From: Aplysia californica
Lineage: Eukaryota
DNA length: 55,946 nucleotides
Reading direction: 5' to 3'
Assembly (NCBI RefSeq): GCF_000002075.1
Contig: NW_004797466.1
Span: 146,231-202,176 of the forward strand
Part shown: in pieces, positions 11,801 through 20,800 of the stretch
Numbering within the stretch: the first letter of the stretch is position 1
How the letters are laid out: each line of letters begins with the position of its first letter
Notes under the pieces: model-generated
The model's input: only the letters and a program-made list of their open reading frames with translations
What the model was told of the DNA's origin: nothing
The model's database searches: none
Made by a program: the position numbers and the translations under genes

Positions 11801-14800
11801 GCGTTTGGGCCTAATGGCACACACTGAAGGCTGCTGTATTCCTATTAACAAAAATTTCTCCTCATTCATATTACTCACATCACTCACATGATAATGGCTA
11901 TAACATTTATATGTTTGAGAAGGCATAACAAAACTATTTGAAAGGTAACAAAAGAAAAGAGTCACGATGGCGAAAACACAAATAGTGACGTACGCAGCAA
12001 TATGTGCACAAACAGAAAACAAAGAAGCAAAAAACTGATATTGACCTTGTGTGGGGTTACCTAGAGTTGTTACCAAATACCCTTCCGTTTTACCTGGACC
12101 GAGACCTAGAGCGTCTCTTTCTACTGTTGGAACGGGACCTCCGTCCGCTGCGAGATCTTGACCGCCCGCTGCGGGACCGAGACCGAGAGCTCGACACTCT
12201 GCCTCTAGATCCCGACCTTGACCTTGACCGAGAATCTGAACTTGAGCTTGATGAGCTAGAGCTAGAGGACCGGGATCTTGAGGACTTTGACGACCTGTCT
12301 GATTTCTTTACATTAGAAGAGGAATTGGAATCATTTGCTTTTTTCTTCTCCTCCTCCTCATCACTATCGTCCAACTGATATTTCGAGAGGTCCCCATCTT
12401 CATCTTCATCCTCCTGTAATACAAAGATGTAGGGTAACATCAATAGCAATGATCATAAATTACATTTGCATGGTAATGTGGTGAAATTTTGTTTTTTTTA
12501 TTCACAATCTTCAACGTCAATTTAAAACACATTTCTGCGTAGATTTTTACTGAATTCGTTAGAGAATCATAAAAAATGTCAATTTTCCCTTTCCAAAGAC
12601 TCTCAAGCTATATCAGTCGCCAAACTTTGGCGGCTATTTTCTCGCTAATTTTACCTGTAACACTATGATGTGACCCCACCTCCTGCAATCGCAAATATCT
12701 CGACATCTATTCAAGAAAAATGGGTAGTTTTTAAATCAAAAGCAAGAAAAATAAACAAGCTTTATGATGATAACAATAACTCCACATGCTAAAAAATTTA
12801 CGAGTGCTTGTTCCCACCTCCGATGACACATTTATTATTTATCCCATTTCCACTAAGAAAGAGCTCATTGCCCTTTACAATAATACAAAGAAGAAAGTTC
12901 AATAGTGATCCTTTCACTCCCCCTCTCTNNNNNNNNNNNNNNNNNNNNNNNNNNNNNNNNNNNNNNNNNNNNNNNNNNNNNNNNNNNNNNNNNNNNNNNN
13001 NNNNNNNNNNNNNNNNNNNNNNNNNNNNNNNNNNNNNNNNNNNNNNNNNNNNNNNNNNNNNNNNNNNNNNNNNNNNNNNNNNNNNNNNNNNNNNNNNNNN
13101 NNNNNNNNNNNNNNNNNNNNNNNNNNNNNNNNNNNNNNNNNCACCCATCACTCCCTCTCTCTACAGTTTTACTAGCACATTGATCAAACATGCTTTTCAA
13201 ACATGCCTAAAATCCCTCTAGATCATGACCTGGAACAAAAAAAATCTTGCTTTCATAGGACCACACACAAATCTGTTCTCTCTTTTCCAAGTCGCTGTCC
13301 AAACAACTGAAAACTGAAGTAATTTAGTTTCAGTTTTCGTAGAGGTTTTACGGCGCTCGCAACTGCATAAGGTCATATGAGCGCCAGAAGATTAGAGGTG
13401 TTACAAGAGAGTAACAAACCTAAAAAAGAACTAAAAAGAACAAGGGGAGATAAGGACGAAAGATGTTTGATAGGAAAGGAGCAAACTGCACCAGAGCACC
13501 CGCCAACCACCCAATGAAGTAATTACAATTCCCCAACCACTTGTATGGTAAGAATTACCAAGATAAGAATTTAAATTTGCAGAAAAGACGTCTGCATTAA
13601 AATACTATGCCCGTACAACAAGTGTGCATACAATGTTATCTACAAGTAAACAAATATATGACAAAATATTGATAAAAATGTGACACGTAAATACCTCATC
13701 AGAATCCAGTTTGTACTTTGAGACATCTTCATCTTCTTCCTCCTCCTCTTCTTCCTCATACACTTTTGACCTCGGAGGTTCCTCTTCTCTACCTTCAGTG
13801 CTGTTCCTTGAGCGGAATTTTTTCTTTTTTCGTCCGAACTTTTTTAACAAGGAAGTAAGAAAGAAAGAGAGATTTAAAACAAACAAATGAGACTGCTTGC
13901 AGCAAATCAGACCTAAGTATGAAAAGCCGAAATATATCAAAGCTCAGCCATAACATAAATATTGATCTGTCTATCCCATTTAAACAAAATAAGCTTTTAA
14001 ATATGAATTATAGAAAAAAGATTACAGTGCAGCCTCAAAATAACGACTTTCGATATAACGACATCCTCTCTATAGAGACATAGTGCCCGAGTCCCGATTT
14101 TTTCCTTATATTCATTAGTACTTTTTGGTTGCCTCTCTATAACAACTCTCTATAACGACATTTTTTTTCTGGGCCCGATAATTCGTTATAGAGAGGCTGC
14201 ACTGTATTCTTGTTAGACAAGGAAAGAGGTTTTTAATTCCTATCTGCAAGAACAGCAAGTTTAACCCTTCCACCAGAACGACACAGAGTGTGTCTTTTCA
14301 CCTCCACTAATCAAATACACTTTCACTCAGTCCTCAAAAATCCATGTTGATAAGTTAAAAATAGAAATGACACTTTTTTGGGAGGTATCACCAACAATTT
14401 TCAATTTAAAGAATTCGAGTCACTTTCCAGTCAAGATTGCTAATCAAATTCCTCTACAACACCTGCTTTTTCTGCATTCAATCTCAGCCTTCACTTCAGC
14501 AGTGTTGCCATTGAAATGTTAATTTTATGGCATGATGAACGAGATGTATCTTGATCTAAAGTTGTCGGTGATACAAAAACTTAAAAACCACACCTGCCAC
14601 TCTATGAAATCTAAAAATCAGGATCTCAGGGGGGAAAAAATCGGGACTTTGTGAAAAAAATCAGGATCAAGAAACAAGCCGACTGCCAAGCCGACTTAAA
14701 AATTGTCCAGGGGTGTCCGTAAATATATGCACTCTGTGTGTGTGAGTTTGTGTGTGTTTGTATTATCATTATCATTTTCTAAATCCTGACGCATCACGTC

Positions 14801-17800
14801 AAGCACTGTAAGTCAAGTGTCTACCACCCCACCCACCCCAAAACAGCAAGTCCCGAATAACACTTCAACCAGTGTTCACGAACTTAATTTGACCCCGTCA
14901 ACGGATTGTCCCCGACACACGCGGAACTCACACACCAAAGTCATGTTGCGGGATGCGAATGCGCAATTGAAACAGTTTTACCGACAGGCTCGACTTATAC
15001 CGGGTGCCCATTGCAGATGGGACCGGGTCGGGTCGGAACGGGATGATCACCCGACTCGTCGTCTGAAAACAAACGCGTTTGTTTCGTGGGCGACAAGTCG
15101 GGCGCGATCGGTTTGTGCCACGATAGCCACTTTACGCCCTCAATCAGGCTAGCAAACCGACCCGACCCAACCTGATCCCCTAACGGGCACCCAAACTCTC
15201 GAGCAACAGTCGTTCTAGGGTAACGACAACGGCCAACCGACCAAATGTACCAACAAATCTCTTATCCCTCATATGTTTTTAGACCAAAGCAACGACAACG
15301 ACTGAGGGTAAGTCTTGTCAGCCCAGTTACAGTATAATCCACTTATATCAACATCCGATTTATCGACATTTTAACATATCGACATATTTTCCAATTACGA
15401 AATTTTTCCTAACAATTTCCTTTATATCAACTTTTTTTTCGGCTCACTCTGCTTTATCGACATGCTTCCTGCGTATCTGGAGAAGCCCACGAACATAAAT
15501 GGGGGGAAAAGCCATGCTAACGGTCAACGCATTAGTTCTTCATTAAGTCCGCATTCCCCAAAGTAACCTATATTGACATACCAGACTTTAGAAGGTCATG
15601 TAAGGCCTACACAGTGTAGTCTCCAACATAGTATAGTGCCTCACAGACGTGAGCGTCTGTCTCGCGTGCTGGGCATCACCTCCCTATCCCCACTCCCGAT
15701 CGCTCACTCCCCTTCCCCCTGAGGGAAAACAGAGTTCATGTATCTTTCATACTTACTTCATCGTACTCATCATCCTCAGAATCCTCTTTCTGTTTGTACT
15801 CCACCACCTCATCCCTCTCCATGTAGCCACCACCAAAGCCTGTGCGCTGCTCCACCCGCCCGTACTTCGGGGCATTGCACATGTTGCAGGTCATTCGACG
15901 AGCCCAGTTTACATTGCCGCAGCTGGGGAAAAGGAAGTATCACTTTGTAAAGGAAAAAAAATACACCATTAGTGTTATAATATAATATAATTTGAATTAA
16001 CCTTTTAGAGGCAGTAACATACTGTTTCCTGGTTCATTCTGAAATTTGCATCACACATATTTTCATGAAAGACAGAAACATTTGACATACAGAAAACTAT
16101 GATTTAAAATATATAAATTTTGAGCATTTTCAATAGTTTAAAAAGTTAGCAATGAGATACACACACACACTTTTAGGCCAACTACTCTGCAACTATATCA
16201 GGCTATGAACACAACACTATGTGCAGAAATACTAACAAGCCTTAAGCAGTGTTGGCAGCTTGAATTGCAACACCAGCGACATAAAAAGATAAGAAAAGTA
16301 AAGTCAGATCACAAAAAAGAACAAATCTAAGCAAAAATGATACTGCCATTCACAAGTAAATCCAGGTGAACAAGTTTCACTTTCAACCCTTTTAGTCATA
16401 GTTTAGGCATGCCTTATCATAACAAAGCATAATATGGATTAAAATGATGTTATTTAATGACTTTGCCTCAACAACTTAAGAATCTTTCTGAAAATCACCT
16501 AAATGGATCAATGGTATCAAAGATCATAGGGCATGTGACCAAAAAAACTCTCAAACTACAATTTTTGGGGATGTAACATAACTTTTTGCCTTCCCCTTAA
16601 CAACCCCCCTTCCTGCGCCTAATCCAAAAAAAAAAAACAGCTTCAAGCAAACCCCCTTTTCTACATCTTTTGCAAACATTGTTTAAATCTTCTTAAAATC
16701 ATATACCCTCTACACATTCACAAATCCCCCAATCATCCTACAGACATTATAATACTCTTGTCCAAGTAATCAATATAAAAAAAGAGACGACTTATTTTGA
16801 TATGACAAGACAGCAAAATAAAAAAAAATGACACAAATTTCACAATCAAGGTACTTGTCACAAATACATTTTTCCTCGCTAAGGGCCCGGTGAATCCACC
16901 TACCTCTTACACTGCCAGTCCTCAGCACTGAATAAGCCTTTACTTTTTTCAGCCAGTTGTTTACCAATTTCAGTGCCTCCTTTTTTGAAGACTGTCCCTT
17001 CTTTTCGATCTTAGTGAAGATAAGATAAAAATATAAATCATAAATATTAAAGGAATAACATTTTAAGACATATGTTCAACCTTTCAAACATTAATTATAG
17101 GTACAATACGATCTATTAACCTTGTTCAGCGCTAAGCACTGATCGTCATACACTCGTCAAGAAGCATACATTATTATCATTGTGATTTGGTAGCTGAAAC
17201 AATCAAATACCACCAGCTGTATCACTGTGTAAATGAATAGAAAGAATAACCCTGAATGGGCCAGTTTTATAATACAGACACTCTGACCAATTGAGAGGAA
17301 AGGGACTAAGATATTGTATCCGTTAATAAACCACTTAGTGATTGACCCATTCCACACAGCATGCCTGCCTAAGAAAATGTGTAAGTGTACATCATGTAGT
17401 GTGCCGATATCATTATCCACTAGTCTATGCTAACCCACTTTCCTAATTTAATCCCCAACTCTCTCAAAGTATGATAGAGTGTGGAGAGTAGTTCAGAAAA
17501 GCTTACATAGTGCTCAATGACTGAGCTCAAACTGGGTTCTAAGGGGGTTTAACCATCCCTCAATGTATACAAATAAAAATTTGACACAAAATACCAAAAT
17601 CCAAAGAAACAGGAAAATGGCATGTTAATTATCTTCTTTTTTTTAAATAGTAGAGGGCTTTACGGCGTTCACAACTGCATAAGGTCATATGAGCGCCATG
17701 TTAATAATCAATTTTTGTTATAAATGGCAAATAGTCTGCAAAACTATGACAAAGAATTTTAAATCTAGGATATTTCAGCACTTTGCAAACAAGACAACAA

Positions 17801-20800
17801 CAAAATTTGTTTAAGACACAAAACATAAAATAAATATATATCAAAAGCAAAAAACATTGTATGTGTCATGACGCCATGGAATCAGGTGCTCTGTCAATTT
17901 TTGGGCATGTGGGGTTATTGGTATCATATAAGAAAGCTTATCCCTTTGCCTTACTTTCACTTTCACTGAAAAAAATACCAGGTATCTTCAAAAATAAAGT
18001 CGAGATATTTGTTATTGAAGGCGATGGCGTCGCTTGGTTTCAATGGTAAAATTAGCAAGTAAATGGCCGCCAAAGTTTGATGATTTCAATAGCTTGAGAG
18101 TCCTTGAAAACGATAAAATTATATATATTGTGTCTTTAATAAATGTTTTTCGATAGAATTCATATGGCAATAAGTTTTTATATAAGAAAAGTGTTGAGAA
18201 AAAGAAACAAAATTCAACATAAACTGCTAAACTGGCGAAAAAATGCCAATTTCTGTATTTTGATGAGCGCCTGATTTCACCATGCTGCCTCACATGTGTC
18301 CTCACCATACTAGTCAAACCTTTACGTTCTTTACCATTTTTTGTCATTTGGTGAGAGAAAATGTGAGGCAAAGTGGTGAAATTAGGCGCTCGTCAATATA
18401 TTTAGAAAGTGAAGAGACCGACATTTTAATTTTTCCACAGGTGCGGGAATTTTTATCACATTTTTTATTTTCACCTCAACACCTTTCATGTCCATTTAAA
18501 GAACACATTGGGGGCTCTCGTGGCCAAGACGTTAAAGTATTCGCCAAAGGTCCCGGGTTCGAACCTGGGTACAGATGGAAAAATTTTCTTCTCTACAAAT
18601 TGTCTCCTTTCACCTCCTTTCCTGCTCTCTAACAATGTTCTGTCGTCTGCTTTCATCTCCACTTTCTGCCCCCACCCCGTCACCTCCTTTGCCCCCTCCT
18701 CTGGGCTCCTGACTCTTTCTGCAGCCTTTCTACTGCTACTCCTTGTCTCCTTCTTACTGCTGCTTTTCTTTCAGCCACACCCCTGATCTTCTGGAAGGAA
18801 AGACCAACACACACCTAGCCTTCTCAGACAAGGGCGAAAAATCTCGGAGGTCCCATGTGCAAGTTGTGCGCGTTAAAGATCCCTTGGTGGTCTAAAATCG
18901 ATAAGAGTAGACTTCGGCCGCCACCGGGGCAAAATTCAAAATTTCCTACAAACTGAAAATGTTTGGTGTGTCCCACGTGCTCATATGACCTTATAATGCA
19001 GTTGCGAGAAATAATAATTTAATTTTGACGGCCATTTTCTCGCCATTTTTTTACCTCTGAAACCAGGCGACTCCCACCTATTTCAATCTCCAATATCTCG
19101 ACTTGTATTCAAGATACATGTTGGGTTTTTTTTCATCCAAAGCAAGACAAATGAGCAAACTTTAAGATGATACCACAATATCTTCACATGCCCAAAAATT
19201 GATGAGTGCCCGGTTCCACCGCGTCCTTACATAAATGTCTACGGAGATCTACAGAGATGAATTCTTCATTGTCCACAACCATTCTAATACAGTAGGGTTG
19301 GGTCGGGCTTGCAAAATTAGCGTCCGCGAATAACGAACTACCCGCTGGCATTACCCGCAAACGAGCAGAAGGGTAACGAACCGTCCGTTTGTGAAGAGTA
19401 GTTCGCTACTCGCTACACATCGGACAGAGACAACAGTTCGTTTAGCGAGCGAGCGGACGGGCCCACTGAGAGACTCCATGCATTCGAGCGGGCGGGCGGA
19501 CGGACTGGAACGACTCCTTCCATTGCCTACAACTTTTAAACCCCCCGCCCCCCCCTAAAAAAAATAATTAAAAAATCACCTTCCTGCCTCACATTGTAGC
19601 TAGGGTGTTCATGACGGAAATTTCCGCACCCCCCCCCCTCCCCCGGCCTTTGAGATAATTGGAACGTACACAGTGTGCCCCACGCACGAGGTGAAAGGTT
19701 ACACACATAGTACTACGTGACCAGCCTCTCTCACTCCCTGTGGCACCGCTAGTGGTTTGAAACATCAAGCCTAATTAACAAACAACAGACGACGGGTCTA
19801 ATCTCGCGTCGAGTATCTCGTCTGCTAGAGTTCGTCCGTTCGCCCGCCCGCCCAGTGAATAAAATTGTGGAGCGGACCCAAAAAACGAACTGACTTGAGG
19901 CTTGAGGCTTGAGGTCCGCAGTCCGCTCGCTGAGAGAGTCAAATTGTGGAGCGGACCCAAAAAACTAACTGTCTTGAGGTTCGCAGTTCGCTCTCATGGC
20001 CGTCCGTTACCCGTTAGCTCTGACTGAGTCCGCGAGTAGCGAACCCGTCCGTCCGCTCGCCCCAACCCTATAATACCGTATTACTCAGAAAGAGTACCCA
20101 TACCATTACATTTGAGATTGTTTGGGTCATTTTTCCTTCATTTTACCAAATCAATTAACTTGTGTTTCTTAAGAAGAAAAGGTTTACTTTTTCCACATTT
20201 GTTGCACTCTGGTCTTCTTGCAAAGTTCACATTCCCACACCTGAAAAAAAAAAAGTGAATATTGAATACATAACAATAAAAATAAAGTTTACATGATTTA
20301 ATTTGGAAAACATAGCAGAATCAACAAGTTGTCAATTTCATATTCATCTATCATTATGTCAGTCCCTTCAATGGATGATGAAACAGTCATGTTGCTCAGG
20401 TCGCTCCCAATGCTTACGCGAGTTGACCAATGGGTAGCAATAAATTTTCAGCAGCTGATAAGGGAAGCGCGTGATCCGTCATAAGCTAAAAGCCCTGCCC
20501 TCAACTCAGTCCTAAACCCGGTCCATAACAATGGAAGTCAACACAAACTCGCAACAGAAGTGTCGCTCGTTCGCCGAGTGGTGGCGACCCGATTCTTTGT
20601 TTTACTATGGCACTTGGTCTTTCTCGTCTGACACATTTCCTTTTGTTTTGACCATTCATGGAACTAAATCTTTTTTTAACCTTACCAGTACAACGTCGGG
20701 TCAAAATGACCCAACCACTGTATTATTTACAATATCTTTAAAAAAAACTAATAGCCTTAACAAATTGTTCTTTTGGTTAGTTATGTTTTTGTCAACCATT

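Follow-up and report, generated by a model that had tools for sequence, protein, structure and literature searches.

Why should a ZRANB2 gene carry, at the donor of one of its own exons, a dense cluster of the GGU motifs that ZRANB2 itself binds, and what could such a cluster do there? The binding motif has reportedly been known since 2009. The case considered here lies in a stretch of 55,946 nt of Aplysia californica DNA (GCF_000002075.1, NW_004797466.1:146,231-202,176), called the window, whose coordinates are used throughout. Judged by its predicted product, the gene on the minus strand of the window is ZRANB2: the protein has two RanBP2-type zinc fingers, an acidic region and an RS domain, its best matches are named ZRANB2, the closest named ones come from heterobranch gastropods, and in a tree of the zinc-finger region it clusters with Bradybaena and Elysia. 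Finger 2 has the equivalents of the GGU-contacting residues W79 and N86, and also of R81, R82 and N76, which we take to be the remaining ones. The fingers match human ZRANB2 structures (2k1p/3g9y for finger 2), including the RNA-contacting residues W, R, R and N. W79, N86 and their finger 1 equivalents have been named as RNA-contacting in ZRANB2 (PMC11789483; here and below, papers are cited by PMC number for the parts of them that were available). The DNA of exon 6 is single-copy in the 927-Mb genome.

The gene model comprises eight coding exons, all on the minus strand. Exons 1 (ATG to donor, 25475..25533), 2 (zinc finger 1, 20188..20240) and 3 (linker and start of zinc finger 2, 16904..17009) come from the exon model; exon 4 (zinc finger 2, 15757..15922) is also marked by a PF00641 match in that finger and by protein matches, and the 3' end of modelled exon 5 (basic and acidic region, 13695..13838) is joined to exon 6 in the RNA contigs of runs X5 and X8. 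Exon 6 (acidic region and first part of the RS domain, 12094..12413) and the frame-neutral RS exon 7 (111 nt, 10141..10251) appear in both the model and RNA contigs. Terminal exon 8, with its RR-stop end and the 3' UTR (5550..8821), is defined by its junction in X7 and X8 and by a peak of 3'-end reads in X19-X21, which places the ZRANB2 3' ends at about 5550-5870. Between these last exons lie intron 6 (1842 nt, 10252..12093), which is retained in RNA contigs, and intron 7 (1319 nt, 8822..10140), which contigs read through. Full splicing of the model gives a protein of 321 aa, a stop at the exon 6 donor 283 aa, skipping of exon 7 284 aa and read-through of the exon 7 donor 330 aa.

At the end of exon 6, four motifs fall within 39 nt of the minus strand, at the positions originally reported: AGGTAA at 12095-12090, GGTAT at 12081-12077, GGTAA at 12074-12070 and a second AGGTAA at 12062-12057. 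The first is the exon 6 donor itself (GGTCCAG/GTAAAA, 12088..12100, the slash marking the splice site), whose use is indicated by a 12094>10251 junction in X5 and X8, by conservation and by pairing; it is without a G at +5, forms the best U1 duplex within ZRANB2 and makes zero U6 pairs. The GGU cores stand 3 nt apart across this donor and 4 nt apart at 12081/12074, and ZRANB2 prefers a spacing of 2-5 nt (PMC11789483). By its spacing and conservation, GGTAT-N-GGTAA at 12070..12081 is likely a bipartite ZRANB2 site. Nowhere else in the window do 40 nt combine one AGGTAA with two GGTAA and three GGTA (0 of 53,919 such segments on the minus strand and 0 of 54,020 on the plus strand); a looser criterion, AGGTAA plus a second GGTAA, picks out five places in the window, two of them inside ZRANB2, and the composite pattern has no second occurrence anywhere in the genome. 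A conserved RNA structure at the cluster was looked for and rejected (no consensus pairs; z from +0.41 to -1.58), and the lack of a shared structure suits single-strand binders. The predicted minimum-energy fold of 12082-12052 (minus strand) places the site at 12061 within a small stem, with a stability no better than that of shuffled sequences, and one sub-threshold bacterial match in Rfam was taken as chance.

Reading through the exon 6 donor gives AGG TAA at once, with the stop at 12092-12090 in the exon model, as had been predicted. This immediate stop is not special to intron 6, because introns 1 and 3 of ZRANB2 are phase 2 too and run into an immediate stop too; being generic for phase-2 introns, it was dropped as a special feature. 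The shortened RS domain that was foreseen does follow from it, since the 283-aa product has 36 RS/SR dipeptides as against 53 in the 321-aa product. Only 29 nt separate the stop from a junction made downstream of it at 12061, so that the 50-nt rule would be satisfied solely through the exon 7/8 junction, 140 nt away, and with intron 6 retained it is 1949 nt upstream of the last junction; both of the latter distances exceed 50-55 nt, provided that intron 7 is spliced. Skipping of exon 7 was rejected as a route to nonsense-mediated decay (NMD): the stop would then be inside the last exon, and skipping was also not observed. The mammalian introns that look like this one belong to the detained introns, a class reported to be nuclear and UPF1-insensitive (PMC4281565), and NMD is a putative fate of the Aplysia form.

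How far the cluster is conserved was judged from 80 ZRANB2-related loci found in a metagenome scan, of which 13 distinct genomic ones extend as far as the donor at the end of the matching RS exon: bivalve-like L026 and L041, termite-like L034, insect-like L023, annelid-like L027, L061 and L072, and other animals. The phylum labels apply except for L050/L066 and L043/L046/L048, which are placed at animal level. Loci such as L028, L031, L047, L052 and L057 were left out for want of sequence through the RS exon or a recognisable intron, as were the near-duplicates L022, L038, L049, L070 and L079. The intronic motifs, the conservation of which had been proposed as a check on the original prediction, have persisted: GGTA occurs within +2..+60 in 11 of the 13 other loci versus 4 of 35 control donors drawn from these genes (p 4e-6, a value that overstates certainty, as do the other p values here, the loci being non-independent and representing about ten lineages when the window and L010 are counted). 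Without the two loci first found by motif scan the figures are 9/11 versus 4/32, and two or more GGTA are present in 6/13 versus 1/35. A G at +5 is found in none of the 14 matching donors versus 27 of 40 others. Upstream of the donor, the last Arg-Ser codons read NGG-TCN in 10 of 10 cases versus 44 of 131 internal RS pairs, and the same holds at the following donor, the match of the exon 7 donor (6/6); this codon bias suggests selection on the RNA sequence within the exon. Pairwise conservation scores exceed all 81 control windows in 14 of 15 comparisons. The matching donor can thus be described as AG/GTAAM without +5G, with an exonic GGU in synonymous codons upstream and with GGUA repeats and a GTCNNTATC element downstream, features that bivalve-like, termite-like, crustacean-like and further animal loci share at the matching intron. 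These sequence comparisons confirm a donor cluster conserved far beyond expectation.

The best-conserved intronic block, AAGGTCAATATC at 12048-12037 (minus strand), is outside the coordinates originally considered. Written as a donor, this block is AAG/GTCAATATC (12037..12048), with its GT at 12045-12044, and would extend exon 6 by 48 nt; it is singled out by its conservation and by its U1/U6 pairing. In 414 kb of locus sequence all eight sense matches to AGGTCNNTATC fall in this intron, with no antisense match and three matches to a reversed-pattern control, and the 9-base element is common to gastropod, clam-like, termite-like and other animal copies. Conservation in homologous introns, which is a mark of ultraconserved pseudo-5' splice sites, is found for its core GTCNNTATC, present in 10 of 14 loci and also, at +227, in L010/L011, and missing from L023, L033, L061 and L072 among the 14. 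A second GGTCNNTATC copy is seen deeper in the same intron in L026 (3335) and L050 (11322).

With respect to the snRNAs, positions -2..+2, +4 and +6..+8 of this block pair with the genome's own U1 (8 of 11 positions), with interruptions at +3 and +5; taken as a continuous duplex, the U1 pairing is weak (-4.1 versus -11.6 kcal/mol), and the C at +3 is invariant. In the case of U6, again that of this genome, the pairing involves +6..+9 and the bases immediately 5' of the ACAGA box, and visual comparison with this U6 shows +2 and +3 to be complementary to the box as well. Positions -1 and +5 form a seesaw: six loci have G at -1 and a non-G at +5, four have T at -1 and G at +5, one has both and none has neither (Fisher p 0.015, from two to three independent lineages). 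A -1/+5 compensation of this kind has been described for real donors (PMC11732430). The block looks like a non-canonical or decoy donor that is complementary to the ACAGA box of U6, and if a conserved second donor exists, its predicted place is 12046/12045. One can go further and imagine, as a decidedly speculative and rather improbable scheme, a split donor present across animals, in which the real donor fits U1 and U5 and not U6, and TC-NN-TATC, 30-95 nt downstream, captures U6 and stalls the spliceosome, with ZRANB2 bound on the GGU array setting the outcome; TC-NN-TATC matches the complement of the U6 ACAGA box at 8 of 9 bases in L043 and L046. Read as a U6 decoy, the block would be an autoregulatory device conserved since at least the protostome ancestor.

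The RNA data comprise eight of 24 matching runs that were aligned, namely five contig sets from five studies (X2, X5, X7, X8 and X15) and the raw reads of one further study (X19-X21). The runs were retrieved with an intron-rich query, which biases them towards retention; none of the 24 is recorded as RNA, so that the RNA nature of the contig runs is a prediction backed solely by spliced joints, and contigs drop rare or NMD-degraded forms, leave molecules unphased and do not give levels. X7 is almost uncovered around the exon 6 donor and was excluded there, leaving four informative sets (X2, X5, X8 and X15), and the raw reads cover essentially just the ZRANB2 3' end and a repeat and are silent on junctions. 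Spliced status was judged by exon 5/6 joints, missing coverage of intron 5 not being counted. X5 and X8 represent spliced RNAs, because their loose end at 12415 matches the end of exon 5; the contigs of X2 and X15 show the same break at 12415 with about 750 further letters, which we infer to be exons 1-5.

The sole joint spanning intron 6 in the five contig sets is 12094>10251 (X5, X8), and in all four informative sets contigs run continuously over 12094-12037 from exon 6 into intron 6. Of the events listed in the junction check proposed with the original prediction, the ordinary junction and intron 6 retention are thus seen, and no 12061>10251 joint occurs in the four informative sets, from which rare forms could be lost. 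With the same reservation, no 12046>10251 joint occurs in them. The exon 7/8 junction is present in X7 and X8, and intron 7 is read through in X2, X5, X7 and X15. Intron 6 is found in transcripts with other introns spliced, as is characteristic of detained introns, in contigs that an intron-rich query had retrieved. Rough contig depths are 910 for the junction and 409 for the retained path in X5, and 12.8 and 5.4 in X8, figures that cannot rank the parts of the gene. A stretch of intron 6 with no variant places (12093-11937, as against 28 elsewhere in the intron) was set aside as too weak, some 2.4 being expected.

Several other observations were made in passing. The AATAAA sites of introns 6 and 7 have no 3'-end read peak in X19-X21; three of them lie at 9830-9917 (minus strand) in intron 7, two within a short duplication, and coverage by X15 and X5 stops at about 9840 and 9570. 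A short interspersed repeat has copies at 8870-9020, 11540-11660, near 13350-13500, 4460-4600 and 3680-4100; the RNA runs contain it in great abundance, and it overwhelms the mapping of reads. Repeat artefacts fill the table of joints. A tandem array with a unit of roughly 30 nt occupies about 1270-1770.

The same event is visible in other animals. In a crustacean-like lineage, splicing is complete in L005; L010 still contains this intron without the following one, and L011 contains the two together. Mytilus trossulus, Ruditapes, Zootermopsis and Logan clusters have both longer isoforms and proteins that end exactly at this donor, protein ends alone being the same for retention and for a distal donor. 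Termite and related proteins (P0057, P0169, P0167 and P0058) have three ends: full, donor-stopped and two residues short. The last form (P0057, P0169) fits a putative exonic AG/GTC donor 6 nt upstream (L034 9321-9328). In the retained intron of L007 (881-922), about 30 nt past the donor, there is a stretch like the 5' end of U1 that could pair with the donor in cis.

The exon 7 donor (GGTCGAG/GTTTGA, 10135..10147) is weak and is conserved in homologous loci and proteins: its intron begins GTTTGA in all seven loci that reach it, and reading through it gives an RF[E/D/G] tail in snails, oysters, scallop, annelid, nemertean and Takifugu. It is likely a second regulated donor, coupled to that of exon 6. 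The same site, read at 10147-10135 on the minus strand, matches the intron 9 retention event of primates. Right after the stop in exon 8 there is a tandem AGGTAAAGGTAA (8804-8793, minus strand), through which the X7 and X8 contigs read; it has no counterpart after the stop in L002 and L041 and seems less conserved than the intron 6 cluster.

How, then, might the cluster act? We lean towards the view that ZRANB2 binds its own pre-mRNA through the conserved element with which intron 6 begins and thereby restrains splicing at the exon 6 donor, cutting full-length protein when ZRANB2 is plentiful. The two ZRANB2 fingers would sit on the GGU pairs at the donor and immediately after it, and the bound protein would compete with U1 or delay the hand-over to U6, with the downstream element likely to serve as a competing or decoy donor. 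The outcome would be a nuclear transcript of the detained type, with intron 6 and often intron 7 kept, and where intron 7 is removed NMD would act as a second line of control. Surplus ZRANB2 would in this way divert its own transcripts to a retained pool. The whole is likely a regulated-retention switch, protostome-wide or older, that serves ZRANB2 feedback. The GGTAA motif doubles as U1 bait, and the related fingers of FUS, TAF15 and RBM5 type could be alternative binders. ZRANB2 promotes the donors that its motif overlaps in ECT2 exon 5 and MAST2 exon 13 (PMC7049692), so that the direction of the effect could be opposite or could run through the downstream donor.

Among the other readings, the one that survives best, and which we nevertheless consider unlikely, takes the site for a sensor of splicing capacity that is not specific to ZRANB2: a weak-U6 donor with its pseudo-donors would answer to U1 snRNP, U6 m6A/SNRNP27K, LUC7, the state of the SR kinases or fingers of the FUS/TAF15/RBM5 type. 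It has precedents in the AG//GUNNN class of donors (PMC11732430), to which this one belongs, lacking U6 pairing, in the ultraconserved pseudo-5' splice sites of ENOX1, which silence through U1 (PMC13100119), and in the many detained introns that are regulated by Clk activity (PMC4281565). However, with such a sensor it is hard to see why a synonymous GGU should stand one codon pair before each of the two donors, or why GGU pairs at a 3-4 nt spacing, within the range preferred by ZRANB2, should lie inside the ZRANB2 gene itself, and most of the conserved GGTAA cores are without the AG of a U1 site.

Next in order, and unlikely as well, would be a poison donor at 12046/12045, to which ZRANB2 or another factor shifts splicing 48 nt downstream; NMD would clear the product, its stop preceding that junction by 44 nt and the last junction by 155 nt, and retention would be a by-product. 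The element is indeed in donor register, with both U1 and U6 pairing, the seesaw at -1 and +5 is what a real donor might show, the two-residue-short termite proteins fit use of an exonic donor nearby, and in its known targets ZRANB2 is an activator (PMC7049692). Yet the contigs lack the joint and are unbroken there in 4 of 4 informative runs, the +3C does not vary and the continuous U1 duplex is weak.

The original prediction, that 12061 is itself a used, ZRANB2-responsive alternative donor yielding an NMD substrate, has fared much worse, and we now regard it as very improbable. TAG/GTAACC pairs fairly well with U1 (-9.0 kcal/mol), and contigs could miss an NMD target, but the AG/GTAA form recurs in only one of the 13 other loci, the conserved cores being TGGTAA, CGGTAA or GGGTAA without the AG, and there is no joint in contigs that are unbroken at the site in X2, X5, X8 and X15. 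The AGGTAA at 12057..12062 is better read as one more GGUA motif. Finally, a chance cluster beside an ordinary slow intron deserves hardly any credence: the donor AGGTAA and its immediate stop are ordinary and the runs were picked by an intron-rich query, but the donor, codon, pairwise and 9-mer conservation tests largely refute it.

Returning to ZRANB2 feedback through retention at the exon 6 donor, how does it compare with known systems? Introns 8 and 9 of mouse Zranb2 are among 3150 detained introns, and both halves of human ZRANB2 intron 9 are in the human detained-intron file (PMC4281565, Boutz 2015); primates retain ZRANB2 intron 9, which yields an FGFL tail, and have a LINE-derived exon (PMC3384923, Park 2012). 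As here, the mammalian introns are the last two of the RS region and flank a frame-neutral exon (about 159 nt in mouse, 111 nt here), intron 6 being matched to mouse intron 8 by position only. The tails made by last-intron retention are FGFL in primates, RFGFL in the Takifugu model and RFE in the window. A GGU array close to the donor, the GTCNNTATC element and autoregulation are all absent from the available parts of PMC4281565 and PMC3384923. The ECT2 and MAST2 targets are similar in having a bipartite motif that overlaps the 5' splice site, but there ZRANB2 promotes inclusion, whereas negative feedback in the window needs repression or redirection (PMC7049692). The Enox pseudo-donors are likewise short donor-like motifs in homologous animal introns with a conserved splicing event; that of ENOX1, however, is a consensus U1 site, whereas the window element has a +3C and its invariant bases fit U6 and not U1 (PMC13100119). 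ZRANB2 itself has no match in the main text or searchable supplements of PMC13100119. In the poison exons of SR proteins and in SMNDC1 autoregulation there is also a conserved non-coding element with the factor's own motif that would cut productive mRNA, but the window shows no cassette exon of the poison type; what is seen there is retention of an intron, and the factor's motif coincides with the donor. The searchable supplement text of two ENCODE-based surveys of unproductive splicing that include ZRANB2 knockdown (PMC6547761, PMC10123112) holds no row for ZRANB2 self-regulation, and a literature search that left subscription journals largely outside turned up no description of this element and none of ZRANB2 regulating itself. 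Last-intron retention is already known in mammals; the conserved donor element seems to be new.

The system would be of the kind in which splicing-factor homeostasis is achieved through unproductive splicing. Few direct targets of ZRANB2 were found in the literature, and the intron 6 element is a natural and evolution-tested substrate, some 60 nt of intron kept across gastropod, bivalve-like, termite-like and crustacean-like genes, suited to asking if donors are blocked or promoted by ZRANB2. The element may also explain the detention of the last two introns of mouse Zranb2. If it is true that the 9-mer works by pairing with U6, it would be an unusual kind of splicing silencer.
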